DNA of 56,337 nt, counting the filler, from Asterionella formosa (lineage: Eukaryota), in assembly GCA_002256025.1 (NCBI GenBank). It is 4 parts of 4 records of this genome, joined end to end, with 100 filler letters (N's around TTAATTAATTAA, not from the genome) between each part and the next. Parts side by side here need not be neighbours in the genome. Positions count along the whole stretch, not along the records: positions 28,230 to 42,238 come from NKIB01006255.1; positions 42,339 to 56,337 come from NKIB01006259.1; 2 more parts are not named here. One strand, 5' to 3'. Under the pieces are notes generated by a model. It was given only the letters and a program-made list of their open reading frames with translations, was not told where the DNA came from and made no database searches. Positions 4,086 to 49,794 of this stretch are shown piece after piece. The translations under genes were made by a program, and so were the position numbers. The first letter of the stretch is position 1. Every line of letters begins with the position of its first letter.

Positions 4086-4239
4086 GCACATGGACTGGTT
4101 GGCAGCAGGCTGTGCTATGAAATTCCATATGTAACTCCATGGTCTTAGAAAGCGTGTTATAAGTGAGTTTCAATTTTAATTTATGCAATTGTTACCATCA
4201 CACTACAACATTCAGCACTCACTCAATCAATTGAAATGC

Positions 4240-9020: not shown

Positions 9021-9069
9021 GCACTATAAATATTATATCGACTAAGACAATACAATGAATAATTGCGGC

Positions 9070-10926: not shown

Positions 10927-11619
10927 ATGGCATCTAAGCTCAACTCGGCCCTGTTGGACAAGGCCCTTACCGATGTCATCGCATTTTCGGAGGGAAACAC
11001 CATCACCCGCGGCACCGAGGAACTCAAGGGAAAGAAACGCAATTTCTTGGAGACCGTTGAAGTTCAGATCACCTTGAAGAACTACGACCCCGTCCGCGAC
11101 AAGCGTTTTTCTGGTACGTTCCGTCTCCCAACGGTTCCCCGTCCCAACCTCAAGTGCTGCATGCTTGGAAATGCTGCCCATTGTGAACAGGCTGATCGTA
11201 TCGGCATTGACCAGATGTCTGTTGAAGATTTGAAGAAGCTCAACAAAAACAAAAAGATGGTCAAGAAGCTTGCCAAAAAGTACGATTTTTTCCTAGCTTC
11301 CGATAACATGATCAAGCAGATTCCTCGTTTGCTCGGACCCGGTCTTACCAAGGCCGGAAAGTTCCCCACCCTTCTTGCCGCCGGAGATGACATGCAGGAG
11401 AAGATTGACGAGATCAAGTCGACCATCAAATTCCAGATGAAGAAGGTCATGTGCTTGAATGTTGCCATCGGAAATGTAACAATGGAAAAGAAGAAGCTTA
11501 TCGACAACACCCAGCTTTCTGCCAACTTTTTGGCTTCACTTCTCAAGAAGCAGTGGCAGAACATTGGACAGATTTACATCAAGTCCACCATGGGTCCATC
11601 CATTCAGATTTACTTCTAA
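10927..11619 (+). CDS. RPL10A: 60S ribosomal protein L10a (uL1)
   Basis: [56 protein letters not shown] and NFL.SLLKK.WQNI...YIKSTMG. Confidence 0.99.
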
Positions 11620-12693: not shown

Positions 12694-13890
12694 CTATTTT
12701 GATTTTCTACTCATCTGCAAAACAGCAATAGAAGAATTCTGCCTTCTCCTAGCAATAATGGCCAAATTATCACAAGTTACCAGTTCGTCACAGTAGCGCA
12801 CCAAATGCACATCAAACCCATGGTCCCGTAGATAACGCATACGACCCTCCTCCAATAAGCGCCTTGCTTGTCGCCCCAACTGCTTTGCACGTTGAAATCC
12901 TAGTAAGGTGAGGAGCAATGAACGTTTGTATTCAAATTCCTGAAGTTTAGTAGCACGGCTCATGGAAATTAGCATTCCAAAGATTCTGAAATCATTGTCC
13001 TGTACAATGCCATGCATTCCAATGTGAGTTTGGCAAAATCCCATGGACTCTAAAAACGGAATGTTGCAATATTGCTCTTTCTTTGTCTTTTGGTGACAAC
13101 ATGGTGCGAGGCAACATGCTCCAACAAAGTCGTTCAAAGGTGGTTGACAAAGTGCCATGAGGCTCATATCGCTGGCACCACCACACAAGTGTTTCGTAAT
13201 GGCAACGACGCCCCCATGCTTTGACTTTGCTAGTGGCACCACTGTCTTTGCAGCAAGGTATCGTACATCGGCCACTACACGAGTGTATGGCATATCTTCA
13301 TTCTTGGATTCACTAGGGAATGGAGGGTCATAAAATTGATCTCCAGTTTTGTGTGATTCCTTTTTGGGACGTCGGCTGTCCAGGGCCACGACGGCGACGG
13401 TTCTATTCAAAGCCTCGTAAATAGCCCTTGTCAACAGTGCTTTCCCGGCCCCAATATCTAGTACCAACGGTGTTGCGTCGCTTTGCTTAATTTCCTCCAC
13501 CAGGCCACAGACGCAGTCCATGAGCGACTCTATCTGAGCTCTGTTTGTGGGCTTTTTTTGGAATGTGTCAGGGCCACTGGCAAGGATCTCATCCAGCACA
13601 GCCACTCCACCTGGGAACACGTGCAATGCGTCCAAGGGAAGCGGTAGCATGCTGTAGGCCCTGTCGAGCTTCCAAGCAAAGTGGTAGGTCGAAACGCATT
13701 GGAATGTGTGACGAACCCATGACCATGGGTGGGTTCGCACCATAGCCCACCGATTCCGCTTGATCTTAATGCAAGCCAAAGCAACGATGACAACCAGGAT
13801 ACCGCATGCTTGCACGGATAGTATCAAGGCGGTTGCAACAACAAGAGCCAGCGCCGACAAACATCCAGCAGAAACGATTAGCACAAACAT
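12694..13890 (-). CDS. TRM13-like SAM-dependent methyltransferase with hydrophobic N-terminus
   Basis: SAM motif VLDIGAGKA, TRM13 signature KHLCGGASD, APCCH, and C-terminal GR.ARRLLEEGR..YL...GF...LVRY....VT..N. Confidence 0.8.
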   Translation of the reverse strand: MFVLIVSAGCLSALALVVATALILSVQACGILVVIVALACIKIKRNRWAMVRTHPWSWVRHTFQCVSTYHFAWKLDRAYSMLPLPLDALHVFPGGVAVLDEILASGPDTFQKKPTNRAQIESLMDCVCGLVEEIKQSDATPLVLDIGAGKALLTRAIYEALNRTVAVVALDSRRPKKESHKTGDQFYDPPFPSESKNEDMPYTRVVADVRYLAAKTVVPLAKSKHGGVVAITKHLCGGASDMSLMALCQPPLNDFVGACCLAPCCHQKTKKEQYCNIPFLESMGFCQTHIGMHGIVQDNDFRIFGMLISMSRATKLQEFEYKRSLLLTLLGFQRAKQLGRQARRLLEEGRMRYLRDHGFDVHLVRYCDELVTCDNLAIIARRRQNSSIAVLQMSRKSK

Positions 13891-14158
13891 TGTGCTATCG
13901 AATGCTTGATCCTTCCGTGTTTTCGTTGCGGGTCGCTCATTTGAGGAATACCGGTATAGCTATCAATCCTCACTCACATCATGGCGACTTGACATAAAAA
14001 TAGATGGTACCTGGTACCTGGTANNNNNNNNNNNNNNNNNNNNNNNNNNNNNNNNNNNNNNNNNNNNTTAATTAATTAANNNNNNNNNNNNNNNNNNNNN
14101 NNNNNNNNNNNNNNNNNNNNNNNAAGAAATTTACTTAGGTCCATTATAAGGGAAATCT

Positions 14159-28129: not shown

Positions 28130-28744
28130 NNNNNNNNNNNNNNNNNNNNNNNNNNNNNNNNNNNNNNNNNNNNTTAATTAATTAANNNNNNNNNNNNNNN
28201 NNNNNNNNNNNNNNNNNNNNNNNNNNNNNTTTACTAGGCCAAATAAACGAGTTAGCCCGGTAAAATCCACTATTTTCAGCATAGTTAAAAAAACCGAAGT
28301 TCCTTTCTGCAGTTTCTCGCCAGATCCTATATCCTGACGATATATAGCGTTGACCTATACCCCTACTTTGATAAATGACTGTATTTAAGCATGTGGAAAG
28401 GGTGTGTATTGGTGAAAGCTCCGTTTAGCGATATACATTTACGTTTTACTCGTAAGAAGTCTATGTTTGACTACTCTGACTTAATATTATTTTTTTAACC
28501 CTACCTCGAGCTAGGGGTTCAAATGCAGGAACCTTAAGCAGTTTTACAAAATTGAAAATTACTAATCATTTTGCTTGTCTTGGTCTGTTATAATGGTAAT
28601 GGAAATTTTCCTTTGTTCGCTCGATTCATGGTATGTATAAATATGTGCATTAAAGGCCTGTTGCCTGTATATATGTTCATAAATGATAAAATATATGGAA
28701 TCCAATGAGTCGAGGATCAATAGTTTTACTGATTAGAAACCAAG

Positions 28745-28925
28745 ACATGCAACACTCATTGACAAATGAATTGAGATGCTCACTTATTGACAATTGAATT
28801 GAGACGCTTACTTATTGACGAATGAATAAGATGCTCACTTATTGTCAAATGAAAATGCAATGTTTAATTATTGTCAAATCAATGTGCTTTCTTATTGTCA
28901 AAGCAAGGAAGATCATATTGACGAG
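28745..28925. repeat. Degenerate tandem repeat, ~25-28-bp unit
   Basis: cttattgac(a)aatgaattgagatgctca-like unit repeated about 5-6 times. Confidence 0.8.
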
Positions 28926-29269
28926 ATCAAGGAAACTGTGAAATGTCTTGTTAAAGATTACATGAGTAATCAGGCAAGAACAATACTAGATAGATTATTA
29001 ACAGATAGCTCACAATATTACAAAGTGTTAAGTGAAAATACATTTTGAGCTTTAGTGATCTTACAAGTAAAATCTGTGATATTCTCAACGAATAAAGCTA
29101 GTAGACAATTCAACACATACTATGTACCACAACCATATGCAATTCTGTACATTCATTGTATGAAATGCATGTAGCTACACGAGAATATTTCTGGAATAAG
29201 GAATCTTGACACTCAGAATTGAGATTGGTTGGAAAGCAAACCCCCCTATCCGAAACCCTCCAATCATAC

Positions 29270-30556
29270 TATAGTGCTCACGGATGTCGCGAAATCAGGT
29301 ATTTTCTTGGTTGACCGAAAACCCGGAAACTGTTTGAATTTCATTACGATAAATCTCGTGTTATCAAAATGACAATGGCAATCGCCGTTTTCTTCCTAGA
29401 AAATAGTAATTCATTATCCCCTTTTTCGGATATGCTCAATCATATCATTGCTTTGAGCGTGAGCGATTGTAATGGCTGGTAGACGACTTATGTGTAGTGA
29501 AATCCATAATTTTATATATTTAGCGTAATGACTCGATTCAGTTGAGTCAAGGCACGAGAAAACTACTAGGTAAATGTATTGGCAATATATAGTTAAAAAC
29601 AGTATATATGAAATAAATATGGCTTTGCTGTTCTGGTCCGGTATAAGTCTAGTCTACCGGGAATGCAATTGTTTTATGATGGCTCATTTGTTATTGCTGG
29701 TACTTACCTGCTACTGCTGGTACCAGGATACATAAAGTCGATTCTCTCCTCATCAACATGCTCTCAAGGCATCCCGGTATACCGGTACATAAATAAATAC
29801 CTGGTTTGGTCCCGGGTACAGGTACCTGATATGATGGAGTATGAATGAACCATCATGGATTATACTAATATTTTGGTATATTGTAGACTAAAATACCAGT
29901 ATACTCCTTCAGCCATGTTAGTTGCCGATACTTCTGCTAATAATTATGATTTTATGCTATGAATTGATCTCTTCCTGTTACCCAGTATTGGTATGAAGTA
30001 GGAACTGTTCTACTAATTTTCATAAACTCCTGGATTCTTTTCTATCCACCATAGCTGCTCATCGACCTTAGGGAAAACCTTGAGTGCAAAAATGTGAATG
30101 TCAATCCCCAACTCAACATTCCTAGCAAGCAACTCCGCAACCAAATTCTCCATGTGATTTGGATGTGTCACTTTCTTCTTCGCATCACTGAAGTGAACCG
30201 TGCCAGTGATTAGTGCACCGATAAGCCCACCAGTCTCATTTTGAATTTGAATAAATTCTTTGGTTTTGTAAGCAACATATTGCTCTTAAACAGTTCCATA
30301 TTTTCATTCTGAATATCCTCAAACTTCTTATGTCAAGAAAGCAAGCATCAATCATTATAATAGCTCACACTCTAAGCAATGGTATGATTGAGCATATCCG
30401 AAAAAGGGGATAACGAATTACTATTATCTAGGAAGAAAACGGCGCATCACCATCGTCATTTTGATAACACGAGATTTATCGTAATAAAATTCAAACAGTT
30501 TCCGGGTTTTCGGTCAACCAAAAAAAACTGATTTCGTGACGTGTGTGTGTTCTATA
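29270..30556. mobile_element. Non-autonomous TIR DNA transposon (~1.29 kb) with ~200-bp terminal inverted repeats
   Basis: 29286-29475 is the reverse complement of ~30350-30540 (for example ttggttgaccgaaaacccggaaactgtttgaattt, gataaatctcgtgttatcaaaatgac, tcccctttttcggatatgctcaatcata). Outer ends are TATAG...CTATA, compatible with a TA target duplication. Confidence 0.88.
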
Positions 30557-30824
30557 CTGGAAGTTCCGGTAAAACACGTTATTTACTTTGGAAAAGATTA
30601 CCGGACCTTCCTGGAAGGTCCGATAATTGGCGCCTGGTATGTACTTTGAACGAAAAATTCCACATAAAAAAGGGTTTCAACTTACTTCATTGGTAGTCTG
30701 ACCGGCTCACCAATTCCAAAATGATGAAATGTTTCCATGTATTTATATTACCTGTAACCATTTCAAAGTTTTGAACTGAATAGCGCTCCCACCTTTCACA
30801 GCAGAATTGCTGACTACTACCTTC

Positions 30825-31380
30825 ACCTTGTTGCTGACTGCAGACTACATTTTGCTAACTGCTGACTTGATTTGCTGAAAATTTGAAATTTTCGCTGACT
30901 GCTGACTTCATTTGCTGACTACTGACATCATGAAATCGCTGACTGCTAACTTCAACTTGCTGACTTGAAGCAACCTAATGGGTAGGAAGAATCCAACTAT
31001 ACAAATCATGTTCACTTTTCATATTTAAATAACGATGGAAACACATCTTTTCGTTGTAGAATACTGAAGCGATGCCTTCTACATATTATCATAGTAACAC
31101 AGAGGTAATTAAAAACTGTTAAATAGTCATCAATGACTGAAAATAGTCATTACTATCTACTTCTTCATTTTGCTACCAGTACCTACTATCTTAAAAATGC
31201 TGACTTCATCTTGCTAGCTACTGACTACTGACTTAAAGAGGTAATAAAAAACTGTTAAATAGTCATTGCTATCCACTTTTTCATTTTGCTATTACCGGTA
31301 CATGATGCCACTATCTTAAAAAATGCTGACTTCAACTTGCTAACTACTGACTGCTGACTTGATTTGCTGAAAATTTGAAG
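30825..31380. repeat. Array of short TGCTGACT/TGCTAACT motifs plus a ~130-bp duplication
   Basis: Many gctgact copies at 30827-30966 and 31197-31370. gaggtaa..aaaaactgttaaatagtcat occurs at ~31102 and ~31238. Confidence 0.85.
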
Positions 31381-31994
31381 TTATATCATCCAATAATTTT
31401 GATAAATGCCCTTGTAATTTAAATAGTAACCCTTTTGACTACGTATATTTAACTATTATATCTATTGTTTCTATTAGATTCCTGTATTCGAATTCTTGGT
31501 AGGATAATGTACCAGCTAAAGGTATGTAATTTGGCTCGTCATTGCCATCCGTCATCACTCTGATTTTTGCAACAACAACGAAATACTAGCGATGACAAGT
31601 GGAATGATTGTTTGTGATAACGACGTCTTCAATTGTTGGTCAAGTGATCATTATATCTTAGAGTAATCGTCATGTGCAGTGAACCTTTGTTCATAATCAT
31701 TCAATTAAGAGTTTGGTGAGAAGAAATCATTTGAACTCGTAATGGTCCCGCACACAGTGCACATTGTAAATTCGTTTCGTCGACCACCAGCATTACAATC
31801 TCGCCAATTAACCCGTAAACAAACACATTCTAGTTGTTTTCGTTGACATTTTCAATTCTCACATGATACTACATCTACTATTGAGATTCAGCATAGAAGG
31901 AGATACGAAAATGTAACAGACTGCTGTCTACTTAGCCATAGTTATAGAATGATTCTGATTACAATTTCTTTTTCATATCGCTCGTTTCAGCATT

Positions 31995-32445
31995 AGGCAT
32001 GCTGTACTTGTATTTACTATTGAACTTTTCCGCATCTTTGATACCATCAAGAGAGCGAAAGCAAGTGGCTCTCTTCATTGTTGTTTGCTTGTAGGAAAAA
32101 TTTGATATCCGTATCGTCATTTGCCTGTTGGAACTGTCCGTTGCCTCAAACCTGCTTGGCGTGTGCGTACACACACTGTCGACTTGTTTTCATTGGTATG
32201 TTGTTCTTGTATTCACTGTTGAACTTGTCCGCATCTTTGTTACCATCAATAGAGCGACAAGTGTGTCTCTTCATTGTTGTTTGATCCTGGAAAAGTCGGT
32301 GTCCGTGTCATCCTCATCAATAGAGAGACAAGTTCTTTCGTTGGAAAAATTGGTATCATATCATCATTCGCTCGTTCAAACCACTGTCCGTTGCCTCAAA
32401 CCTGATTAGCGTTTGAGTACCGGCATGTGCACTGTCGACTTGTGT
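31995..32445. repeat. Imperfect tandem duplication (~200-240 bp)
   Basis: ccgcatctttg.taccatcaa.agagcga, tctcttcattgttgtttg, actgtccgttgcctcaaacctg and cactgtcgacttgt each occur twice in order. Confidence 0.85.
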
Positions 32446-33038
32446 ACATTACAGGCGGAGTGACTTCGCTACTAAATTGCGTGATATAATAATATACCCT
32501 GTAGCACGTCGCAGAATACATTTGCTTCCCAATCATCTCATCATGATTGATAAGATGATACTGTGATATCATAATAGGGTTACATCGATGCATACATCAC
32601 CAAAGTATGATACATAATATTGAATAAAGTACATCACATAGCTATGATACATTGATCATAAAACTATGATGATTTTATAAAATGTATATGATATAATTTT
32701 GATCAAAATATGATTATGTTAAAATAATACAATGATCATAAAATACGATAAAATATGTACACAATTGTTACCAAGACATCATAGAAAATAAATCAAGCAA
32801 TCATAAAGAATGTTAAATAATACATATGTTTGTCGTTTAATGTATACAGTTAAAGTCAACAGTTAATATGATAGTATTATACAGTGGATAGGATCTAAGT
32901 ATACGGATGCGTTGATATGTACATCACTATAATATGATTTGTGATATGGGTTGATGCATATCACATACCGGTATCCTCAACAACCAGCCATCACATTCAT
33001 TGTCGTGTCGTCTTTCCTTGTTTTAGCTATATATATAT

Positions 33039-35008
33039 ATGCCAGCATGTGTATTGTGTCAACGCTACGCTGGCGGAACATGCATATTACACTGTGCTCT
33101 GTTGGTCTTCGTCGATGAAGACTCTATTCATACAGAGTCACAGTTCCACCATCCAGTGTCGTATTTTGCTCCTCATTCTCCCGAAATCGCTGATAATGAA
33201 GAAGAACTCAGTGATTCTCATTCATTTGATGAACAAAATCATGCGATGAATGAAAATATCGGCGGAAATGTGGCAGACATCACTTCTGAAGTAGAAATGG
33301 TTGAAAAGTTGCAATACCAAGAAAATATGTCTCACTATTTGTCCAGAACATCAAGATGACCATCATAAAATCAGAGAAACTATTGCGTTTCTAAAACAAA
33401 AGATATTCAAGAAAAAGTCCGAGGTAGATCAAGACCTCGAATTCAAGAAGATCAATGCAGACAGAGATGTGATGACCATGCAGGCTAAGGCAGTTGATGC
33501 ACTGAGTCGGGAATGAAGTCTGAAACACAAAATTGAATCTTTTTCCAAATCATACATGGAAGAAAAAGAATTTCTTTGTAAAATCATTGAAAGCAATCCC
33601 GAAGGCAGCTACTTTTGTGAAGAGTCGGCATGTGAAATGTGTAGAGTTATTATGCCAAAGCAAACGGCATTTTCCTTGAGTTTGCCGAAATCGCATGGAC
33701 AACTAAAATTGTGGAAAGATTTGTAAACTCGTACCCCGCAAGATATATGCAATTATGCCTCTGTATTTTATGGAGTCAAAGGTATCAAAAAATCATGTTC
33801 AGATTTTAAAGATCTTGCATATTGGGACCTTGAAACAATTACCTCTATGATCCATTATATAATTCATGAACTTCATCCAAGTGATGTAAAGGTTATATTT
33901 GATCTGGATGAGAACCCAGAAAAGGGTAAAAACAATCCATATATATACCAAGGTGATTGTCATCCACTTCATCACGAAAGTAACTATGTGCTAATTGTGT
34001 ATTGCAAAAGATCAGATGAGGAGGAAAACAATCATTTTGTGCATTATCTTTTTGCTATAAATGATGGATTATGTCAAGTCCGTGATCCAGGAAAAGATGC
34101 AATTTTGGATGAACATTATGATCAAGTATTTCACCTTGCCCGTAAGTACTGCATCATCCCCGGATGCAAAAAAGAATTGGAATTGTTATGCACCGATACA
34201 GGATATCTTCCACAAGAATTCCATATACCTGAAGAAATTGGGTTCTCGGAATCTTTCTATACTAGCACCAAAGCACGACCATTGCAGATCAGTATGGCCA
34301 CTGGACATGATTCCATGTCATTTCAACCAGAAGATGACAGTGGATGGTCATGTGGACCTTTTACAATTGTGAAAGTGTTGGAAACTCTATTGCAATTAGA
34401 AAGGAATGGCAAAACCAAATTTCTTGGCAAACGGGCACATTTCCGTTTGGAGACTGAGTCCTGGAAAGTTTTAAAACGTCAGGTGGTAGCAACAGATCGA
34501 ACAGACGATTTCTTATCCATTACATCTGACCCACCAACCAAGTCAACATACTTTCATCTTGGAACAGTTTGGCCTCAAGTGACAACGACAAATTCTCGTG
34601 AGGATATTTTTCAGTTGGAAATAACTGTTCTTCAATTTTGTATCGACAAAATTTTGACATCCTATTTAGATTTATAAAAGTTGTTGAACGAAGTATTTGG
34701 ACGAGTTCCTTGCAACTCTTCTTTCAAGAAGGATGAAGTTGTCTACGTAAAATCCATGATACAACAAAGTAATGACAAACTTGCTCCCTTTAAATGGTAT
34801 AATCATGCATCTCTTGGCCAAATTTCTGGATGCATCAATTGACAAAAAGTTGAAAGAAAATTTTGTATCTGATGATAGCCCTTCTGGAATCAACTTGAAG
34901 AAGTTTGCAGACTCATATCGAACTGCAGTTGAAAAGTAGAGAAGCAAAATTTCGGACGAAACGAGAAGGACCATCTTAGCTTCTTTGGGAGTGAAAAAGA
35001 ACAAATAA
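33039..35008 (+). pseudogene. Transposon-borne Ulp1/C48-like cysteine protease gene, disrupted
   Basis: In ORF 33847-34677, NNHFVHY...RDP...FQPEDDSGWSCGPF has the H-D-Q-C order of clan CE proteases. Upstream acidic, coiled-coil and Cys-rich fragments. The inverted copy at 44953-45440 shows that the frame originally ran on to ~35008. Confidence 0.6.
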
Positions 35009-35137
35009 TGGACCATTGGGATTATGCAATGTCATCATTTCTTAGGAAATTGTAGTTTGTGAAAACCTCATAAAAACCAATTTAGTATGCGAAACTATAT
35101 TGTTACCATTATTATTTATATTATTCTTATATATTTA

Positions 35138-38100
35138 TCAACGTTCGCTTGTTAATTTTTGGTCCCACCCGATTGATTTCCATAAATGATGTGGAGGCAT
35201 GGCAACATAAAATTTATCTTTCCGTATCTGTTCCAAAACTTCTTGCGGTTTCTCAGATTTCCTTGATTCCTGTGGTTTCAAAGCAGGAACAATAAATGCT
35301 GCCGAAAGTATGCATGTTATGAAATTCAACAACGCTCAATTCAGTTGTATCATTGCATATGGTGTCTCCTCTTGCAAAAAACATAGCTTCGTTTATGAAT
35401 TTTCATTTCAGTTGAACTTTTCAAGGAACGAATACACGCTAAGAGAATGGTTGTTGAGTTGGAGAAAATAACATTTCCCCAAAGAAGTAGTTTTGCAGGA
35501 ACTGTGTAGGAACTTGATCCATCTCCCTTCTCCCAGTTCACTTCGACCCAGTCAAACCATTCACGACCAGAGATTCCTGCCTTTGAATCATTATTCCATT
35601 TCGGATGGCATCTGAAAATAGTAGTTTGGCCGGGAACGATAATTTCAATTTTAACATGATAATAAAAGTCAATCCTTACAATGGAAACAGGCCCAATCCC
35701 ATCTTCAAGACTTTTGATTTTTGCTATTTCTATTGCTGAATTCGCAATGCTCTTTACGTAGTTGGCCCCCTTCGGTAAATCAGGATGAACCAATTGAGAC
35801 AAGGGTGCATGATCCTTACTCCGTGATACATGCCCAATCTTATTAGGGACACCTGCTATAGTCCATAGACCATTTGATGATGAAGCAGAAAATTGAACTT
35901 TAACAGGAAGGGCTGGTGAATGGATTTTGGTAGGCGATATTCCCAAATTTTCAGGCGACCTACTAGGCAACATCATTGTATCCGGAATCATTCCTTCGAA
36001 ATCAATTTCTGTTGAAATACCCTCATTTACATTGACGGTATTTTCTCTACTTATCTTCTTTTGTTTGTTTTCTGTATGTAATGAATCACTTACAAAAAAA
36101 ATTTCGTGCCAAGGCAAACTGCCTTGTTTCATATGACCTTGTTAAAATGTCATGCTTTAATCGATGTAATTGTCCATTGACACGCTTACTGGGTCGCTCG
36201 TTTCAATTTGTCTTTCAAAAAAGACTCCAAATATCCACCAAAAAAATTAAGAGGAGATCCGAACTTCCTAATCAGATGAGGGTAATGTTTCATTCCATGA
36301 TATTTTGCCATTCGTAAGCCAATTTGAGATATCATTTCCCGTTGGGGACCAATCATAATCTTAGTAACTGACATAAATCTCTTCACCCTTTCCTCTAAAA
36401 TATCAATATATGTTGATGCATATTGTGGTATGAATAAAGTGTCATTGATAGATATACATAACAATAACAGCAATGTGAAATCCTTTTCTAGGTGCGTGTT
36501 CTCTGAACCCATCATTCTTCACAGACATAATCCGGGAATTTCTTGCCCTGACATTTTCGACAAAGCTGTCATCCCAGATCTGTATGACAATTTTGGAATA
36601 TCACGATCGCTTTGCCTTGCTTTCCAAATGACTATTGATATATCTAGCAGCCACTTTGTTCGAAGTATACTTTCGAAAATAGCTACATTTCTGGTGCTGG
36701 TACAAGTGTTGGGTCTTGATTTTTGCCAGTGTAGAGTCGATATTTTTGGTAACTGGTGCGTGTGTCGCTCCTGTTTGGTCTTTGCCCGTTTCTTCGGTTG
36801 CTCTTGATCAAGAAAAGCAGAGTCTGTTTTTTCATTGTTACGTTTATGATCGGAGAAGTTTTCTGGAATATCTGGAGACTTTCTTTCTTTAAAAAAACAT
36901 GCCCATTCTTCAGGGATGATAGTCCGATAATTGTACAAAGATTCCAAAATGTACTTAAATATTCCAAGCAGTAATTGATGAAGAACCTCAAATGGAGTTG
37001 CACCAAATAATCCTTCTAAGTCACCACCAAAAAATGATTTATTAGTGCAGGCATAATAGGATTATGCGATATAACACTGCACCACTCGTTTGCTGTTGCG
37101 TATTTGCCATTAGATTGGGAGACACAATACTCAGGTGGGATACATGGCAATTTTCCATCGGGATATGCATTTTTGTCAAGAAACTTGTTTAAAAACATTT
37201 TAACATCTGACACTTTACGACGTTCACATCCAATATCAGGATTATCAGCATCTTCAGTTGAAACCAGGCAATCACGACAAACATATCGTCGATATAATCC
37301 ATTACCACCACTGAAGCCACAAATTTTATTGTGTTCTTCTGTATCAACAATGATCATTCCAACTTGGAAATAAACTTTTGTCATACCAAGACCATGAACC
37401 CAAATAGCTATCGTATGACTTGTTTGGATCTTCGAAAGGCGACAATAGAAATCCTGTAACAGAATGATATAATTTGAGTCTACATAAGGACAAGTTGTCA
37501 CCAGATAACTTATTATTCATTAATTTTCCAGATCACTGACTTCAATGTCTGTCAAAAGAGATACCAATTGCCATCCATCAACTTTTTTTCTTCCTTCTAA
37601 CGTTAAGTTTAACATTGTCAGCAAAAACGGATGCTCGGAATCTTTCATTTGTTTATCAATAGGTGAACCATCACTGAAAACTGCTAGGGCAACAAATAAA
37701 CACCCTGTCTTAAACACTCCATTTTCTGATGCAGGAGACTTGTTGAATGCATTTTCAAACCAAGTCGCAGAAGTTACTTCGTCATATATGCGTTCTCCAC
37801 AAGTTGTAAGTAGTTTCACTTGTGAGTGACATACAAAATGTTGCATGATTTCGGAATCACGTAGCAATCCTGCCATGAGCTGTACTGGTTCGAAATAATG
37901 GAATGTGCGTGGGATGATCATATTTGAATTGTTATCAATCTTTATTTGTTTGGTCAACAGTTGACCACCAGCTAATGTTGGTGGAAATGAAATATCCATG
38001 CGTTTTTCCAAAGTCTGGTAGGATGGAGCTTGATACCTGCAATCCATCAAAATATTTCATTGCTTTTGCCTTGAACAGCCATTTCATTAGATGATCAAAG

Positions 38101-38720
38101 GAAGCTGGTGGAAGATAATTCTCGTTGAGGAATAACATGAGTTCTAATTCAATTGGATGCATGTTCAGAGAATGTTTACTTGGAAGTTGAAATTGAGGAG
38201 GAAGGGGCATTTCCATTGCATTTTCAGGGAGAAAGCCGGTGCGATCTTGAAAATCTGAATATTGCATGGTTTCTGAATTCAATCCTTGGACAATTTTTAG
38301 TCTCAATTGTTCGTCCTGTTGTGACTGAATATTGTTATAAACTGAATTGTCGCTGTCGTCATGAAGTGGATGATTGTGGTCACTTGATTCAAAGATAGGA
38401 CACATAATCTCTTCTTGTCTAATCTCCCTAAATGCTGCAGCAGTTACACTGCCATCATTAACCTCTTTCCTTGAATGACTAGATGCACTACCGCAATACA
38501 TAATTTCACTATGTATTCCAGGAACTCGATTTTCCTGCATGCAATGTCGACAGTGACCATATGTATAAAAAAACGGTTGCTACAATTTCGATTGTGTGAC
38601 TCAGATGGGGATTTGTTCTTCCGAAATTTGTAGTTACACAGATAACACCATTGCAATGTGCGCAAAGACATTGCAAATTGCAAATGATGACCAAGTCAGG
38701 ATATGAAAAGGATAGCATGA
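35138..38720 (-). mobile_element. Plavaka/CACTA(EnSpm)-like transposase, multiply frameshifted
   Basis: Ordered motifs: RIYDEVTSATWF, ALAVFSDGS, PFLLTMLNL...RKK..GWQLV, IIVDTEEHNKICG...CRDC, SDRDIPK..Y..G.....KMSGQE, KYHGMKHYPHLIRKFGSPLNF.G...ES..K..LK..TQ and FRCHP.W...WFDWVEV.W...VPAKL. Confidence 0.8.
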
Positions 38721-38950
38721 AAATGAATTAATATATAATAATAAATTGAGCGCCACTTCGAACATGCTGTGCTGGAAAATACAGAGTCGTGAAATTATCA
38801 CTCCACCATAGTAGTAAAAATGGAGGTGTACCGCTACATGTAGTACAGGCGGCACTAATAGTAATAGTAGTATAGAGCAGAATCAATGTTTTCCTATCAT
38901 CTATGATATGGCTTGCATTGTAGAAGTATCACACTAACTATAATTATTAT

Positions 38951-40873
38951 TTAACTACTAAGTATGCATTGGATTCTATTAGATCCATTCAAAATCAACT
39001 TCGTCATCAATGTCCCGTTGATTAATGCGGTCATTATAATCAATATTCTTTTCAGGAACATTTGGTTGAAGTGATTCAACAAATTGATGCATATCCTCTT
39101 TATATACGTTGGGAAATGAGAAGTATGAGTGTGGGTAGATGATATTTGTGGTGGGAGTAGCGATTCCACTAGGATTCCTTCTAAATTCAGATCGATTCTT
39201 TTGTGAAAGTCCAGTGTAGATTTCCTTATAATAAACGAGTAAATCATCAGTCCATTGATCAGCCAGTGAGACCATTTGAAACTGAACTTTCTTCCCTCAC
39301 ACTTTTGTTGATAAGTGGTTTCCCACCAATGTCGACAAAATCGGTAGAATGACGAATATCTATCGTTCTCTGAAATTTCATGGGTATCTGGATTGAAACC
39401 AAAATATTTTGGTTGCAATCGGAATTTTCCTTTCAGCACCAAGAAGCAAAATGCTTCTGTACTGGCATTGATCAGCGAACCAACAAAACGTGTTTGCAAT
39501 TCACACTGTGCCCGAAGACTGAGTTGAAATATGGTCACACCAGATTTTTCTCCTGTTAAAAATGGTTCTCCACGGCTTGTCCTGCCTATAAAATACACTG
39601 GAGCAAGAACATCACGCCAGACTTGGTATCCATGGCTTCCCCTGTCCATGTCCTTTGACTGCGCAAAACGATAAAGCGTCAACGCCCACCTAATAAAGTC
39701 ATTAATATCCATAGTCTGGAAGTTAGCTATATTCTGTTAGACCAGCTGGTGTGTCATGAATTATGTTAGCATTTTTAAATTGAAACATGTTTGATAAGAA
39801 TTTAGTCACCGACTCAAAACACATCCTTTCGGAGCATCTCCCTGCGAGAACTTACCTAAGATTCCTTTAAATTGATTATTCAATACATTCTGACATTCTC
39901 TCAACTTTTTTATGCAGGCCACATGCCACCAAATGTTGATTTGATGTAATCTAAACGTGCCTTGTTGGTACGTTCAATGGTCTGATTAATTGGAAGTAGT
40001 GCATCAGAACCATTCCATATGAAATCGGCAAGCTCTGGGTCACTCTCCACTTCTTTGCCTAACTCCGTTTTCACTGTGTATAGCTGAGTTAGGCAACATT
40101 CGGCAAACCATCCTGTTTGTGATTGGAAATGCCTTTCATACTACTTGGACCAGATAGGCATGGCGGGATGTTTGATTCTCTTTTGGGACCAGAAAAAAGC
40201 ACATTTGATTGATATTCTGTTTTACAGTACCTGCAATTCACAAACTATAACATCAAACTTACATGTTCACAGCAAAACTTCTTGGTCTTGAAAATAAAAC
40301 TCACAACCTTTGTGACAATTGATGGATCGGTTCAATTTTAGCTAAGCGAGAACGACGTTCTGATAAGGCTGCTGAAATAGAAGAGTCTTGATAACCTCGT
40401 ATGGACGAGTTTTGAACCGAATTACGACCTATGTAGTGATTGAGTTCATTGACCAATTGATTATATCCTTTGGCAAGTGCAAAATGTTTTTCCCTCAGTT
40501 TGTCATGTACCTGTTGGTCCGTGCGATTAGAAAATTTATGATATGGTACCATGTTGTTCATCTGCATCCGGGAGTTATTAATGTCATCATCGACAGGAGC
40601 CATTTTTCTTGTATCAACAACTGAAGTAGAAACGTCATCATTGCTGTCAGTATCAATTACGGGATCCTTTGTACTAGTAGCTGATGGTGTCCCCATCGAC
40701 GATGGGGTATTACCCCCAACGTCTCCCAATCGCCGATTGGGTTGCTTTGGATAATCGCCTATTCGCTTTTTCTTTGTAAACTCATTTTGGAACTTGCTTC
40801 TTTGTTCAATACCGGCAGTATTTGCCACATGTCGCTTGTTTCCATGAACCTCTTTATGGTTTCTTGAAGACAT
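38951..40873 (-). pseudogene. Spliced companion gene of unknown function, co-oriented upstream of the transposase
   Basis: ORFs 40301-40873 and 38951-39712 are bridged by exon-like sequence with gtaagt donors (near 40262 and 39855), a ctaac branch point and cag acceptors. It contains LINASTEAFCFLVL and has in-frame stops. Confidence 0.5.
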
Positions 40874-40924
40874 TGTACTACTTGATAACTGTTGTCGTTG
40901 TCTTCCTTAAAGTTCGATGATCTT

Positions 40925-41395
40925 AAATTCATTTACTGTCCTGCTGCAGTAGCAGCAGTCATAGACATATGGTGTTCTATTGCTTACTTATTACTCCGAC
41001 TACCACTTTTCAGTTTCACGATCATACAATCCTAAAACTATGATAATTTACTATCCCACTGCAGTAGCACAGTCCTGAAAATATGGTGTTCTATTGTTGT
41101 TTAGTTTTACGATCATACCATCCTAAAACTATGATGATTTACTGTCCCACGGTAGTAGCAACAGTCCTGAACATATGGCATTCTGTTGCTCGCTTACTAC
41201 TCCGACTACCGCTTTTCAGTTTTACGATCATATGATCCTAAAACTATGATGATTTACTGTCCACATATGGTGTTCTTTTGGTTTTTAGTTTTACGATCAT
41301 ACGATCCTAAAACTATGATGATTTACTGTCCCACTGCAGCAGCAACAGTCCTGAACATATGGTGTTCTGTTGCTAGTTTACTACTCCGACTACCC
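40925..41395. repeat. Complex tandem repeat, ~70-115-bp units, about 5 copies
   Basis: ttttacgatcata..atcctaaaactatgatgatttactgtcc occurs 4 times; catatggtgttct and ttactactccgactacc also recur. Confidence 0.9.
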
Positions 41396-42350
41396 CCAGT
41401 ATATCACTTACTACCTGCTACTGGTACTCTGTATATATATATGATATATTGTTATTGTCATACCAGTATGATGTACCGGTACAAAAAATGAAGAGCTCCC
41501 GCCCAAAAAAGGGGCTTAAACAATTTGCTACCAAAACCTTGGCGGTTATGACTTACACCAATTGAATGGTCTAAATAATTAGTTTCAACGGACGTAGAAA
41601 ATATCGATGCAAACAAATTTCAGAAATAATACCGGTACACGTAGTCGTGAAAAACAATGGACATATAGTGCATTGAGTATTTTCGAATTATGTATATGCG
41701 AGTATGATCATCCCAACCATATCAGATGTTCCATATCGAGAGCGCCTTTGAATTTTATAAATGTATAACACTTCATATATATATATATTTTTACAAATTT
41801 TATTACTATATTCATGGCATATATATTTTTGAAATCGTTCTGTCATGTTAACAAACAATGCCTGCTGCTTCATGAAAAGATACGTCATAGTAAAGCACAT
41901 GACAAGAAAAGAAAGTTTTCGCAATACATCACGAAAAACATTGTGACTTCGACACATTGCGCCTTCGAAGGATGGATAATGTTTAAGGTAATGAAGCCAT
42001 CAATGTGGTACTTGGATGACAATCGTTGGGAGACAGGCAGCACAACAACAAATTGTTAACTAAACGCAGCCACATTTCCTTTTTTCTCAGTTGATTCAAC
42101 AGCTCGTTTCGCTTGTTGGGGAGCACCAATGTAAAACAAAACCAAACCAAATTGCGTAAGTGCTCTTGTCGCTCGTTGGACCTATTCACTTCTGTTGGAA
42201 CAAAACTAACAAAACGTTTATATTCTCTCAAAGTTAAGNNNNNNNNNNNNNNNNNNNNNNNNNNNNNNNNNNNNNNNNNNNNTTAATTAATTAANNNNNN
42301 NNNNNNNNNNNNNNNNNNNNNNNNNNNNNNNNNNNNNNTACAGAATTAAT

Positions 42351-42465
42351 TGAAGTATTTCAAATAATTATGTGAAGTATTTCAAATAATTATGTGAAGT
42401 ATTTCAAATAATTATGTGAAGTATTTCAAATAATTATGTGAAGTATTTCAAATAATTATGTGAAG
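42351..42465. repeat. Perfect minisatellite, 22-bp unit x5
   Basis: (tgaagtatttcaaataattatg)5 followed by tgaag. Confidence 0.97.
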
Positions 42466-42660
42466 GTGATCACGTAATATAGTGATGATCAGGAATGCAT
42501 GCATGATACTCTCATCAAATAATTAACGTGATGTATTCAGATAATATATAGATATATTCAAGTAAGCATTTTGATGTATTCAACTAATTCATGTGATCCA
42601 TTCAAAATCAACTAGGCTTATTTACGTGATGGTCACTTCACGTAATACGCGGCTTAGATG

Positions 42661-45445
42661 TGGGAGAAGGGAGATGGATCAAGTTCCTACACAGTTCCTG
42701 CAAAACTACTTCTTTGGGGAAATGTTATTTTCTCCAACACAACAACCATTCTCTTAGCGTGTATTTGTTCCTTGAAAAGTTCAACTGAAATGAAAATTCA
42801 TAAACGTATGCTGCTTTTTTGCAAGGGGAGACACCTTATGCAATCATACAACTGGCTTAATTGAGCGTTGTTGAATTTCATAACATACTTTCGGTAGCAT
42901 TTGTTGTACCTGCTTTGAAACCACAGGAATCAAGGAAATCTCTGAAACCGCAAGAAGGTGGGGAATTTTAGGTTAAATTAATTGCCCCTGAGGGTCATTT
43001 TAGGTTATTCCGCACCTAAAATTCAGGAAATGATTAAAAATATTTTCTCGTCCTACAGACAAATGTTGGCACAAGGCTACAGACGAAGTTAAACTTCCTT
43101 TTCAGTTCTTGGAATTTTAGGTGCGGGAAAACCTAATAATGACTCCCTGCATTCAATACTTTTGTACAGTGTAAAACGGATGACGGATTCTGATGGTTCA
43201 TACCGTACTTAGCTTGAGGTCGGTACGTGATGCATTGGATGTACCGGTACCAGGCACCAGGTACCTGATAGGCACCTGACATCGAGCATTGATGTAGCGG
43301 TAGATAAATAGAGAATTATACTTGACGGTACTTATGACTTACTATGATATTATGGAGTATCAATACCGGTACGAGGTACCAGGTACCTGGTACCTGATGG
43401 ATGCGCATACATACATGTCAGTACGTACCGGTGTGTTGTAGAATCTTGTCGGCATGAACTTTTCTTTGTCCTTGTCATTAAATATTGCGAAACCATATGA
43501 TCGGTCTACATTTTGCCACGGCTCACCTTTGTCATTGCTAGCTACGGATGTGCTCATTTGTATGAAGCGACGATCGATTATCGCAGCAATCAACCGAAGT
43601 CCATGCTGTCTCGTCAATCTCTGAAATACTAGCTAGTATGCAGCAAAATTGCAGGTGAACTTTGGGTTGTGGTATCTTGTGACAGTTGCATGTTGGTAAT
43701 GCGACCACCATTCTAACAGCTCGTTGCATGTGTGGATGTGATTTTAAAATAGAATGTTGATGACTAGATATCATGACAGCCATGAAAATGTTCGTTTGAT
43801 TATGTAGTCGTCTGATTTATTCTGTTTACCATCCATGCCTAGTATAGAGTCATAGTATGTCTTCGTTTTCGTCGCCAATTCAAGCCCAATTGATTGCCCG
43901 CTATCATCGATTAACCACCCTGTTCTTATTGCTAAAAAACCTTTCGAACGTGTTTGTCTATTATTCTCCAAATTCAAGTTTTTAAACTCTGGCGCATTTT
44001 TGATTGTTGAATTGAATCAAGCTTTCTGGATTCTCTATCACCAGCATGTCATGCAAATTTGTCACTGAGGGTCCACCATTTGTTGCAAGCTGATAAAGCA
44101 GGTCGGGTAATTAAAAATTCACACAAATAACATGATTCTTTGATGGATTTAAGAGATGATTGAACTCGCTCCATAAGCCTATCATTGAGGCTTCATCAAC
44201 GATGCAAGGAGTGCATGAAGCTAAACTTACAATGTGCAAGATTATTCAAAGTAGTAGCAGTATGGATAAATCTACTACTAAAGAATACAATGTTAACATC
44301 GAAACTCTGATTTTGAAACTTTGATGCTAATGAATTGCTACTAGTAGTTATTTAAATGAACAAAGGAATTAATTTGGTTCAAGCAGTCAACCGAAGAATC
44401 AGGCCACAATTGTTGAATGTTGTCAACAATTTTCAACAGAACAAGTAGTACTGACACTACTAATAGCTAGCTATTCATTTCATCTACATTCTATCATTTG
44501 GTTGAGGTTGAAATGAAGTGATAGTGAGTCGTAATTTACATATTGTGTGTGTATGCTATAGTTACAATATTTTTTGTCATCTGCTCCACCCTGCAACGTA
44601 TTATCAGTACTTTCTGTATTAGGTATGGATGGGTGTGGTCCGCCCAAGGTAGAAGTCGTTCTCGTGTGTACATTTTGTACCGACCATTTTTTAGGTGTCG
44701 GTTTGACCTAAAATTCAGGGTGTGAATAAGAAGTTTTGGAACAGATACGGAAAGATAATTTTTATGTTGCCATGCCTCCACGTAATTTATGGAAATCAAT
44801 CGGGTGGGACCAAAAACTAACAAGCGAACGTTGATAAATATACAAGAATAATATAAATGATAATGCTAACAATATAGTTTCGCATACTAAATTGGTTATT
44901 ATGAGGTTTTCACAAACTACAATTTCCTAAGAAATGATTATCCAATGGTCCATTATTTCTTCTTTTTCACTCCCAAAGAACCTAAGATGGTCCTTCTCGT
45001 TTCGTCCGGAATTTTGCTTCTCCACTTTTCAACTGCAGTTCGATATGAGTCTGTAAACTTTTTCAATTTGATTCCAGAAGGGCTATCATCAGATACAAAA
45101 TTTTCTTTAAACTTTTTGTCAATTTTGATGCATCCAGCCAGAAATGTGGCCAAGAGGTGCATGATTATACCATTTGAAGGGAGCAAGTTTGTCATTACTT
45201 TGTTGTATCATGGATTTTCCGTAGACAACTTCATCCTTCTTGAAAGAAGAGTTGCAAGGAACTCGTCCAAATATTTAACATTTTTAAATCTAAATAGGAT
45301 GTCAAAATTTTGTCGATACAAAATTGAAGAACAGTTATTTCCAACTGAAACATATCCTCACGAGAATTTGTCGTTGTCACTTGAGGCCAAACTGTTCCAA
45401 GATGAAAGTATGTTGACTTGGTTGGTGGGTCAGATGTAATGGATA
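42661..45445 (+). repeat. Inverted duplicate of 34514-35535 (3' ends of the transposase and Ulp1-like genes), split by an insertion
   Basis: 42661-42957 matches the reverse complement of 35239-35535, and 44728-45445 matches the reverse complement of 34514-35244. ORF translations are nearly identical. Confidence 0.95.
42958..44727. mobile_element. 1770-bp insertion flanked by AAGAAG direct repeats; unclassified element
   Basis: AAGAAG at 42952-42957 and 44728-44733, against a single cttctt at the empty site 35239-35244. Subterminal inverted repeat gaattttaggttaaa / tttgacctaaaattc. Confidence 0.85.
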
Positions 45446-46150
45446 TGGCTACGCACATGGGATATATGCTCAGGGTACCTGAGGTAGCCCTTGTAGACGC
45501 TAGTATATAATCACTTAGCTTAGATGTTGCGATTTGTTTATGCATATGAAATGCTACAGTGTAGTTCTTGTGAGCGACTGGAGAATCCTGCATCATGCTG
45601 TCTCTGCCTTGACCAGCATGATGAAAATAGCGAATTTCTCCACAAAAATGAAGAGGATGCTTTGCTATTGGGTACACATATATCTAACACAACATAGATA
45701 ATTCAAGCGTAAAAAAACTGTAATAACACTAATGTTGACAATGAAAATTGAATTTGCCAATTGTGCATTTTATATGTACTTTAGATGATTCACAATTCAA
45801 AGCAACAAAGTTACAATGAGATTTAACACTTTCACAGTATGCGACACTCTACACTACGGCAATCTGTAGTTTGAACCTCTATTTAAGTTATGTCGATTAA
45901 CAGTCAATTGACATTTTCAAAATGATTCTTTTGTTTATGATTACTGATCAAGTTGGTGACTACATACAGCTAAAAATCTGCTGACAATGACTAGAAGTTG
46001 CTGACAGTGACTACTTAGAATTTGCTGACTACTACAGCTAGAAGTTACTGATTGGTGAATTCCATTAGTCAACTGTCTTCCAGTTGCTGAATACCATTAC
46101 CAGTAATTGTAGGTGAACATGATTTTGATGATCAGAACATGACTTGGATT
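45444..46150 (+). repeat. Dispersed repeat family A, copy 2, followed by GCTGAC-motif repeats
   Basis: Colinear with 50415-50942 up to ...ttttcaaaatga.tcttttgttta.gattact..tc.agttg, then gctgac repeats at 45980-46090. Confidence 0.8.
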
Positions 46151-46712
46151 TTATGTATGATAATTTAACATTATATAGAATGTTACTTAAGAGAGTTTGG
46201 AATGGAAAGCCAGCCTATCTCAAACAGTAGCCTTGACCCTGAGGAGTCATTGGGAGTGAGTCGAAACTGAATACCGGTAAGTGCGCATAAAACCTGTGCT
46301 ATCGGGTCTTCCTGGGATCTTGTTTACTGTTTGCATACATACAACGGGTACGGTATATCGATACCACTCTGGGATTACTACTGGTACCAGGTACCAGTGC
46401 CGGGTACACCCATCTTGTTCCACACCTGTCTTTGCCACCTGGTATGGTCCCGGGTACACCATCAGGTACTGGTATGGTACCAGGTACCTGGCACCTGGCA
46501 CCTGGTACTCTGAGTACCTACCTTGTACGGTGCGAGCACCAACACAAGTACCGGTAGGATATTACGGCTCGCTTCTCGCCATCATAGTCATCATCATGCA
46601 TGATGGTTTCAAAAGTTGCAAAAGGTGGAAGAAAGACATTATCATTTGCATGGACAGAAGATAGCGCGTTTAATACGGCAGCAGCAGCAGCAGCAACAGC
46701 AACAACAACAAC

Positions 46713-47561
46713 ATGAGCGAAGAAGAGCCCCAAACAGAGACAGCAGACGCCGGAGAAGAAGATGCCCCCGTCAAGGAAGAAGAAAGTACCGCGGTCTTTG
46801 AGCCAGTAGTAAGTTTCGAAGCGCAAGGTCAACCCCTGATCACCCCTTGTGGATTGCCGTAGCCCGTAGTAATGTCTGGAAGTCACCCGAGTTCGAAATC
46901 CTGGGCGATCGTCTTCTCTGAAACTCCCAATTACCTTGTTGTCGCTCACCGGTCAACTCTTTTTGCAGGTTAAGCTTGAGGAAGTGGAAGTCAAGAGTGG
47001 CGAAGAAGAGGAGGTAAGTGGAGTTGTTGAGACGAAACGGAGCCTGATTGATTGTTTTACTCAGATTTCAACTTTGTTCAGGAAGTTGTCTTTACGATGA
47101 GGGCGAAATTGTTCATCTTTGGCGAGACCTTGTTGGATGTAGGGTCCGGGAAGAAGTCATGGAGAGAGCGTGGGGTAGGAGATATGCGCATCTTGCGTCA
47201 TAGAGAGCACCAGCGTCTTCGTGTTTTGATGCGTCAGGAGAAGACCATGAAGGTTATTGCCAACCATGCATTGGATCCCAGAATTACGCTTGAACCAAAC
47301 GTTGGATCCGATAGATCTTGGGTATGGTCTGCATTTGACTTCGCAGAAGGAGAACTGAAGGAAACCACTTTTGCTGTCAGATTTGCTGATTCGGAGATTG
47401 CTCTAGACTTCAAGAAGAAGTTTGAAGAAATGCAGAAGGACATGGCAGCGCTACTTGCTGGTGGAGACAAACCTGATGCAGATGGAGGGAAGGCTGCCGA
47501 TGAAGCTGCAGATGCTCTTAGTAAGGCCAAAGTCGTCGATGACGACGATGACGACGTGTAG
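46713..47561 (+). CDS. RANBP1: Ran-binding protein 1, 3 exons (46713-46808, 46969-47013, 47082-47561)
   Basis: FEPVVKLEEVEVKSGEEEEEV.F.MRAKLF...W.ERGVG..RIL.H....RVLMRQEKTMKV.ANH, GSDRSWVW and DFAEGE..F.VRF. GT-AG introns are in frame. Confidence 0.96.
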
Positions 47562-47818: not shown

Positions 47819-49794
47819 TTATACCATCTCTAACAATCTGGAACTTCGTGGAGCTACTTCTCTTAGCCGACTCCTATTAATCACAGGATCAGAAACTTTA
47901 CGAAGAAGCGTTGTTTCTCGTGTTGTCGTCGATCGTCGAAGCAGAGCGATTCCTTCATTGACTTTAATATCAAGGGTTTCTTTGTCACCCATCAAAATGG
48001 CGTCTTCATGTTCAATGCCAAACATCCCCAAGATGCGTGCATATCCATTGCACAATGTGAATGCACAGAGCGCCAGAATCAGCAAAGGGGCGTATATCGA
48101 AAAACTAGTACCAAAGAATGGAACAGTTGACATCATATTCATGACATGTGAAAAGGCACAATCCGTGGTCGAAGTATCATATTTGATTATGAAAAGAAAG
48201 TTGTACGCCAGCGGAAATTGTAGACGAACAAGATACTGAGCATTGAAGAGCAAAGCGATCCCATTACTTTGCTTATTTCCCCGAAGGCGGTACGGCCCAA
48301 AATTGCTCAATTTGAACAAGCTGCTGTATACACATAGCGACATGTACAAAATGGGCAGCAGCGCTGCAAGCTGGAAGAGGAAGCCACGATCTCGATTTCC
48401 TGGCGTATCAAACATTCTCAATGCTAAAGCAAAGGGAGATACGTTAAAGGGCAATGCCAATGTCGCCTCACTCCACAAGACAGCACCAGACATGACTGCA
48501 AACGCCATTCCGAGCACACGATAGAAGGGACGGCGTAGGCAAGCTATCCAGAAATACCGTATATTAACTCCGAGTTTCCCGCATGGTTTCTTGGAGCTCG
48601 TTGGAGTTTCTCCTCCTTTAGCTTCGCTAGCGTCGCCGCCGCAATTTGCGAGTTCGGCATAAAAGTTGCTGTGCTGAACCAATGCATTCCACCGTTGTTC
48701 TGAGCTGACAACTTCCTCTTGAGCACGTTCCAACCTAGCGTTTAACTTTGCCAAACTAGCAATGGATGGAATACCATCATCCAGTTCAATATCGCATGTT
48801 TCTTCATGTCGACCTCTACCTGTAGTTCGTCTTTGATGCATTTCTGGGCTCAGCACGGCAGTTGACTTCCGTGCAGTCAACAGTTTGTCCACACATCGAG
48901 CATAGTAAGGATCCATTGCCACGCGACTATCTTCACTGTCGCCTATGGTCGCAGCAGCCTTGTCAATCAAATCTTCACAATCCTGCAGTTCCCAGACGGC
49001 TTCGAATAATGCTTCATCCGCACTGCTAGCAACAATCTGAGTTCGCCGAAGCTCGGTTTCTGGATTTGCCTGTCGCCATACCTGTTTCGGCAAATCGACT
49101 AGACTGTATCCCAGAAGGAGCACAACCATCAAGAATCCATAGGTATTTCCGAGCGCCATCAGCACAGGTACAATGTGACCGAACGATTTCATCTTGACAG
49201 CAAGGGCAACGACAAAAAGCACAGCAGCCTGTAAATCAAGTAGAATCAAAAATAGTTGGTTGGTTAATTGTCAACTCCACGCATCGGCATTTCAAACGAG
49301 TCAACGTACGCATGCTCCCATGATCCAGCCACGCACGGCTATTCTGCATCCAGCTTGGAGTCTTGAATACCAAGTGAAGCACCCCGAAAGAAGAGCATGC
49401 CGAAAAAGCGGCAAGATGATCCATCCTAGAAAGGCTGTTGACCAATAGACGACTTTCCATGGGAGGTAGGTGTCATTCGGCGTGCAGCAACTCTCGGCCT
49501 CCGGTGAGCCTTCGGCGTATCTGTGTATTGTCAGAGCACGAGATGAGTCAAGTATGGAAGGCGTGTTGGGACTTTGGCAAGGTACGGTCTACTTCAGCGT
49601 CCCAGCACTTACACTGTAGTGACCGTTAGATCGATTGGAAGCAATGCAATGCCCCCGAAACCCAGAGTAAAGCTCAACGTGACCAGAAAGAGAATCAATA
49701 TCGACGTTTTGCGAGCGGCAAAATGGTTTACCAACAGGGCCGCCAACACGAAGAAGATGGCGAACAATATGCCTAGCGTGCTCTCAGCGTCCAT
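47819..49794 (-). CDS. LMBR1-like multi-pass membrane protein (LMBRD2-like), 3 exons (49794-49613, 49520-49310, 49228-47819)
   Basis: LLPIDL, W.VVYWST..LGW.ILP, MALGNTYG...LLGY.LVDLP, LLFNAQYLVRLQFPLAYNFL and VPFFG..F..YAP. Confidence 0.9.

Follow-up and report, generated by a model that had tools for sequence, protein, structure and literature searches.

A decayed member of an abundant family of 12-kb cut-and-paste transposons with two passenger genes in Asterionella formosa

Genes, extent and ends of the element

The window analysed here is a stretch of 56,337 nucleotides of the Asterionella formosa assembly GCA_002256025.1, made of four parts joined end to end, along which all positions are counted. 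One part, 28230-42238, is a single contig, C6255 (NKIB01006255.1, positions 1-14009), and from 31372 to its end it is occupied by what is left of a 12-kb cut-and-paste transposon, abundant in the genome, that carries, besides its transposase gene, two passengers, a putative Ulp1-fold cysteine protease gene and a spliced companion gene. We consider it very probable that this is a dead member of a three-gene, high-copy family of CMCT (EnSpm/CACTA-related) transposons with a Plavaka-type transposase. Its features are as follows.

31372..42238, no strand: remnant of a DNA transposon that has terminal inverted repeats (TIRs), ~12.1 kb when complete, 94-96% identical to the consensus of other copies
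31372..33103, plus: left non-coding arm, 5' of the protease gene, with direct repeats spaced by ~200 bp at 31991-32450
33101..35008, plus: pseudogene of a predicted Ulp1/CE-clan-fold cysteine protease, 720 amino acids in the intact form
35138..38671, minus: Plavaka-like DDE transposase pseudogene, ~1,150 amino acids, putative start
38979..40873, minus: companion gene of three exons (40873-40263, 40179-39856, 39745-38979), ~560 amino acids, frameshifted in the window
40931..41394, no strand: internal array with a period of ~92 bp, just upstream of the companion start and ~1.7 kb inside the right end
41012-41040, 41102-41131, 41218-41246 and 41286-41315: four palindromic units of ~29 bp within this array, candidate binding sites
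41395..42238, plus: right non-coding arm, stopping at the contig end; the right TIR lies ~855 bp farther in other copies
30825..31371, no strand: repeat array of the GCTGAC type, outside the element, foreign DNA in place of the left terminus

A sequence-only reading of this DNA had described three decayed genes, whose 3' ends it located within tens of bases, while some of the outer limits were off. The protease and the transposase do converge closely, their stop codons (35006-35008, plus strand, and 35138-35140, minus strand) being 129 bp apart. The protease start proposed at 33039 proved wrong, since a deletion of ~404 bp at 33101-33103 took the first ~89 codons. As to the companion, its start at 40873 holds, while its stop lies at 38979, the proposed 38951 belonging to a frameshifted reading. 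No host gene stands among the three, as all five stop-to-stop frames of at least 200 amino acids in 28230-46250 belong to them.

The element is well represented in the genome: a DNA search with 30300-41600 as the query gave 77 matches at 74-100% identity, nearly all at 82-97% (26 of 2,394 candidates scored). From other genomic copies a consensus with ends and target duplication could be obtained, and it bears out the proposal of one large multi-gene Plavaka/CACTA-type transposon, then put at more than 8-10 kb: it is ~12.1 kb long, with TIRs shared by the copies and mostly 2-bp target duplications. The window covers its positions 64-1808 and 2213-11268 at 94-96% identity; besides the ~404 bp lost from the protease gene, the left TIR and the rest of the initial ~63 bp are missing, as are ~855 bp of the right arm past the contig end. 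When 43 loci and the window were compared with the consensus, 6,022 substitutions were counted over 180,820 aligned bases, and decay of the window copy has gone on ever since it was inserted.

On each side the copies reach a common terminus, CGTCTGCAAATAAAAA(C/G)TATCAT, with 22 of 23 bases complementary; the TIRs are 23 bp long (CGTCTG...CAGACG). The terminal pattern has 508 exact matches, among them deletion derivatives as well as elements whose interiors differ, against none for the reversed control, and the terminal base is C at 47 of 65 ends. Five of the six TIR pairs retrieved are flanked by a perfect 2-bp target duplication (AT, TC, AC, AA and TT; for the contig C4775 the outer of its two right ends was scored); in the sixth the duplication is off by one substitution, and the empty site gives TC as its target. 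Empty sites agree with a 2-bp duplication.

The arrays deserve separate consideration, since the sequence-only reading took them for the brackets of the element. Both exist, at 30825-31380 and 40931-41394, but they do not bracket it, the left one being foreign and the right one internal. The left array stands in place of the element's first bases; none of nine other contigs in which that end is preserved has it upstream of the left arm (a tenth, C971, breaks off farther inside and was not counted), and only one other locus matches it, at 71%. Such foreign DNA, together with the repeat density of the region and the frequent nesting and rearrangement of copies, could suggest that separate elements have piled up by chance between two arrays. 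We regard this as hardly credible, because the window aligns to the consensus at 96% over an unbroken 9.2 kb, and the TIRs are held in common by copies, of which collinear three-gene ones occur on 16 contigs. These 16, all of at least 6 kb, hold at least 40% of each of the three genes and belong to a set of 38 contigs picked by similarity, many of them for having both passengers; thus the three genes do co-occur in other copies, as the one-element proposal implied. In the genome as a whole, the protease domain has at least 143 matches and the companion exon 3 at least 161.

Transposase and passenger genes

The transposase pseudogene retains, in order, the motifs FSDG, (G)DTEEH, CRDC, HGMKH and YLESF, which place the codons of Asp at 37672, Asp at 37345, the CxxC at 37279, the HxxxH at 36299 and Glu at 36227, the catalytic roles being assigned by motif alone. 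The order D-D-CxxC-HxxxH-E is described as the CMCT signature in PMC12730594. The Plavaka profile PF18759 is matched by the family member L025, 92% identical in DNA to the window copy, with 37.5 bits (cut-off 26.3), and by the sister-family locus L001 with 62.5 bits. There are 43 PF18759 matches in the genome, many of them from other families, 21-30% identical to the transposase considered here; among these, L002-L021 and L030 have open transposase frames of up to 839 amino acids and are possibly younger.

The protease gene of the window lacks its ~89 N-terminal codons and contains 4 stops and 5 indels, while on another contig, C14015, the frame is open over 720 codons. The residues of the predicted catalytic site stand in the clan CE order His-Asp-Gln-Cys (window codons 34033, 34084, 34324 and 34351, with a CxxC before the domain at 33631), and in a 41-row alignment H398, D415, Q494 and C503 are the majority residues of their columns (19/23, 15/22, 16/17 and 14/20 ungapped rows). 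When a model of the protein was compared with 48,161 chains, ranks 1-27 were all CE-clan, the first unrelated chain having Z 3.9; the best was SENP7 (Z 7.7, root-mean-square deviation 4.7, 175 aligned residues), and a NEDD8 protease and Ulp1 gave Z 7.2 and 5.5. In the Atlas, giant-virus proteins without names (0.94) precede its named neighbours, which are Peptidase_C48 clusters, one at 0.93 in which 17% of the members carry that domain and one at 0.91 in which 98% do. The protein is thus likely, judging by its model, to have the CE-clan fold. The earlier designation of it as Ulp1-like is probably right as to the fold but is not borne out by the Peptidase_C48 profile: the intact frame has no Pfam match, with no C48 at E<=5, and ten relatives likewise have none at E<=1.

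Among 1.84 billion proteins the protease has 89 representatives, most of them fragments of its own or the sister family, plus a few relatives at 27-36% identity, two of which carry a second Ulp1-like domain, more canonical-looking by eye. The metagenomic proteins P0082, P0079 and P0110 (1,000-1,550 amino acids) have two tandem Ulp1-like domains with a CxxC before each; the second is homologous to the protease of the element, with Ser in place of its Cys in P0082. Co-occurrence of the genes in other organisms was looked for by scanning metagenomes twice with distant relatives of the protease, and none of 38 and none of 230 pattern matches could be confirmed as a locus of this kind.

The companion is spliced, as had been claimed. 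Its introns, 40180-40262 and ~39746-39855, are GT..AG on the minus strand and are skipped in poly(A) RNA contigs of three of four runs; another candidate intron, ~40232-40309, was ruled out by the RNA splice joints. The exon frames are intact in other copies. No Pfam match was obtained for the companion and no Atlas match for its exon 3, nor was a longer homologue of exon 3 found among 1,041 candidates, a search that did not include near-length and shorter proteins; these blanks do not show that the companion is novel.

All three genes are also present in a sister family (contig C7442) at 66-77% DNA identity, although there the transposase gene, which lies between the two passengers, has the opposite orientation, and in a third family (C6778) a relative of the protease, 32% identical, lies beside the transposase of that family. 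The right TIR of the sister-family locus L163 (C7442:750-10000) is similar to that of the element. Between the element family and this sister family the ratio of nonsynonymous to synonymous divergence (dN/dS) is 0.09-0.18 for the transposase, 0.24-0.31 for the protease and 0.28-0.41 for the companion exon 3, as estimated by simple counting with the Jukes-Cantor correction against decayed copies, at a dS of ~0.9-2.1. All three genes have therefore been under purifying selection between the sister families.

These values bear on the view that takes the passengers for fragments captured from the host, neutral cargo of the Pack type without any role for the element. Most copies are indeed broken, the passenger functions are predicted ones, and transduplication of Ulp1 is described as frequent in plant elements (PMC2528002). 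Nevertheless, we find this explanation very unlikely, as the passenger dN/dS stays at 0.24-0.41, a protease relative lies next to the transposase in three diverged families, and the protease gene has no introns and no annotated host orthologue among its 89 representatives.

Several results weigh against the interpretation of the locus as a protease-bearing Plavaka-type element. The window frames match neither PF18759 nor PF02902 (Pfam; 0 of 13 frames of the element region at E<=1), and the window transposase core scores nothing in Pfam even with the frameshifts read through as X; it is other copies and structure that carry both the Plavaka and the protease assignment. No intact transposase frame of the family was found, the longest in L001-L128 being of 354 amino acids. 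Two more facing TIR pairs (C15149 and C5688, read by eye) share no 2-bp duplication, which lowers the count to 5 of 8; with ~7% expected per pair by chance, this is still far above chance. The protease model is weak (predicted local distance difference test, pLDDT, 53; 32 for a single-sequence AlphaFold model), Z values below 8 are common, and the alignment contains one canonical-looking Ulp1-like row. Neither PDB nor BFVD yielded a Foldseek match to this model at E<=0.001, and a hidden Markov model search of PDB with the protease gave nothing meaningful, phmmer likewise. Finally, the termini CGTCTG..CAGACG fit neither PlavakaA (TGT..ACA) nor PlavakaB (CATCA..TGATG), though CGTCT, differing from CATCA at two of five positions, is nearer to B than to A. 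We therefore file the transposon as a putative Plavaka-type CMCT element outside both subgroups, a placement made by motifs, profile and termini.

Expressed derivative, candidate excision scars and neighbouring sequences

RNA contigs from poly(A) runs X2 and X4 (one study) and X6 (another) have both companion introns removed and skip 35019-38866, i.e., the whole transposase. The junction thus formed, 35018->38867, is that of C14015 and is spanned by one of 41 assembly matches; the present-day spliced passenger transcripts come from this transposase-less derivative. In its known part (L050/L129, C14015:1-3628) the protease frame and the companion exon 3 are open. The gap counts of contig 21 of run X6 (15, 8, 10 and 5) equal the window's own lesions, hence the passenger transcripts are probably in frame. 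A contig that spans two genes is not equivalent to one transcript, contig depth does not rank expression, and the fact that X2, X4 and X6 cover the transposase only thinly is no evidence of its silence; the fourth run, X1, gave short contigs over all 30 bins and may contain DNA.

The passengers of C14015 might, then, be a maintained expressed gene pair, either co-opted by the host or acting as a helper in trans, a possibility that we take seriously while holding it rather unlikely. Its deletion junction occurs once among the 41 matches and yet appears in poly(A) contigs of three of the four runs from two studies; the 720 codons of the protease are free of stops and frameshifts, with ~3.3 expected from 28 substitutions; exon 3 of the companion is open, and the RNA gap counts would imply intact frames. 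On the other hand, the ratio of nonsynonymous to synonymous differences (pN/pS) of C14015, 0.74 vs 0.64 in dead copies, gives no sign of selection, and the P of ~0.04 for its intact frame is post hoc among ~60 aligned pieces. C14015 may just be the youngest copy (1.3% from the consensus); besides, RNA contigs are no measure of how strongly it is expressed, and it was seen without its ends.

Small insertions in the copies of the family are of a peculiar kind. Out of 349 distinct clean events of 3-4 bp, 215 are scar-like: 108 of 143 three-base insertions have the form XY-G-XY or XY-C-XY, while among the 206 insertions of four bases 107 are of the form XY-GC-XY, compared with 3 of the form XY-CG-XY (the four-base pattern is expected in 0.8% of random 4-mers and 11% of tandem duplications). 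Examples in the window are at 36681, 37406 and 39725. In these candidate excision scars a dinucleotide of free sequence is repeated on either side of a terminal C:G pair in inverted orientation; by analogy with hAT/RAG chemistry, hairpin excision of a C-ended, 2-bp-duplicating element could leave such a trace; no direct precedent for such scars was found in the literature searched.

We hypothesize that the scars come from this element family. At consensus position ~4270 a family element sits at an AC target in L149 (C4073), and an AC-C-AC scar is found at the same site in L175 (C12935). The two copies are not nearest relatives, and the flank preferences differ, the scar flanks being A-rich at -5 (0.49) and the family ends having A 21 and G 20 times of 65, in a set that includes some false ends; the link of the scars to this family is therefore unproven.

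To the right of the element, the window continues with other DNA:

42239..42338, no strand: N-flanked linker between unrelated contigs
42661-42965 and 44728-45445, minus: piece of a different copy of the family, with the 3' ends of its protease and transposase genes, ~1.0 kb, 92-93% identical

As 28230-42238 is one contig, what had been taken for a gap at 42239 is a contig join, and 42661-45445, earlier read as a duplication of the protease/transposase junction as a unit, is unlinked DNA, a fragment of another copy on a different contig. This fragment is interrupted by a 1.76-kb insertion (42966-44727), which has imperfect inverted ends. Before it, at 42339-42661, lies the end of another repeat with a 22-bp tandem array, which adjoins fragments of the element family in four other contigs. 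Farther along the same contig there are ordinary host genes, 47052-47561 (plus) and 47819-49270 (minus), with a RanBP1 domain and an LMBR1-like membrane protein. On the left side, 29270-30556 is a ~1.3-kb element with terminal inverted repeats of ~205 bp (89%), also present in C12973.

Related systems, proposed mechanism and significance

The novelty of the family had been overstated by the sequence-only reading, which called it probably undescribed: multi-gene Plavaka elements are known already from fungi and red algae, and Ulp1 cargo from plant CACTA/MULE and oomycete Crypton elements. According to Kojima 2025 (PMC12730594), fungal PlavakaA and PlavakaB of the CMCT clade end in TGT..ACA or CATCA..TGATG, in contrast to CGTCT..AGACG here, and the cargo is TET/JBP, instead of a CE-clan protease and an orphan spliced gene; the words Ulp1 and protease do not occur in the main text of that paper. 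The red-algal Plavaka of Bostrychia moritziana with its genes PAG1-3, as presented in bioRxiv 10.1101/2025.02.11.637652, is similar in being large, multi-gene, high-copy and mostly degenerate in an alga, in having accessory genes, and in the tandem inverted-repeat arrays beside one of them, PAG3, which the four palindromic units upstream of the companion echo. Those elements are of 17-19 kb with methylase/SET and ParB/2OG-oxygenase genes, whereas ours is of 12.1 kb with the protease and the orphan.

Plant CACTA-ULP and the KIU and VANC-Ulp1 Vandal MULEs likewise carry an Ulp1-type domain on an EnSpm/CACTA-group or MULE transposon; in the descriptions consulted (PMC2528002, PMC13317346) the function of this cargo is given as not known, with anti-silencing proposed. 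The plant domains are described as recognisable Ulp1/C48, while the protease of the element is too diverged for Pfam and, unlike them, has a ~70-residue insert before Gln/Cys and is encoded by a separate convergent gene. In oomycetes, CryptonF-2_PS and CryptonS provide a case of an Ulp1-family C48 peptidase as stramenopile transposon cargo, although Cryptons, as characterised in PMC3212892, are tyrosine-recombinase elements without TIRs, in contrast to the DDE transposase and TIRs found here. In the literature searched, which did not cover subscription journals and Repbase, we found no description of Plavaka in diatoms and none of Plavaka paired with Ulp1; nor did we find there a Plavaka element that unites a CE-clan protease, an orphan spliced gene and CGTCTG ends (the Bostrychia supplements were not covered either).

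The following mechanism can be proposed. By analogy with CMCT/Transib/RAG biochemistry, the DDE enzyme would bind the TIRs, excise the element and insert it with a 2-nt stagger. The spliced companion may be a DNA-binding helper like TnpA or VANC, recognising the array of palindromes that the arm of the element itself contains. The CE-clan protease might strip a ubiquitin-like modifier (SUMO, NEDD8 or ubiquitin) off the transposase or local chromatin proteins, which would help the element to stay active, and it may, as the sequence-only reading supposed, counter silencing by the host. Taken in its entirety, the picture of an undescribed CGTCTG-ended Plavaka sub-lineage, whose selected helper module (a deeply diverged CE-clan isopeptidase and an array-binding orphan) outlives the transposase as one intact locus that is spliced and expressed, and whose hairpin excision makes the XY-GC-XY and XY-G/C-XY micro-insertions so common in the repeats of the genome, seems to us unlikely.

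Should the link of the scars to this family hold, a large share of the small insertions in the genome would stem from these elements. Our analysis adds another independent capture of a protease, probably of the Ulp1 fold, by a DNA transposon, this time with evidence of selection. As the intact expressed gene pair can be cloned, the role of transposon-borne Ulp1 domains becomes testable.

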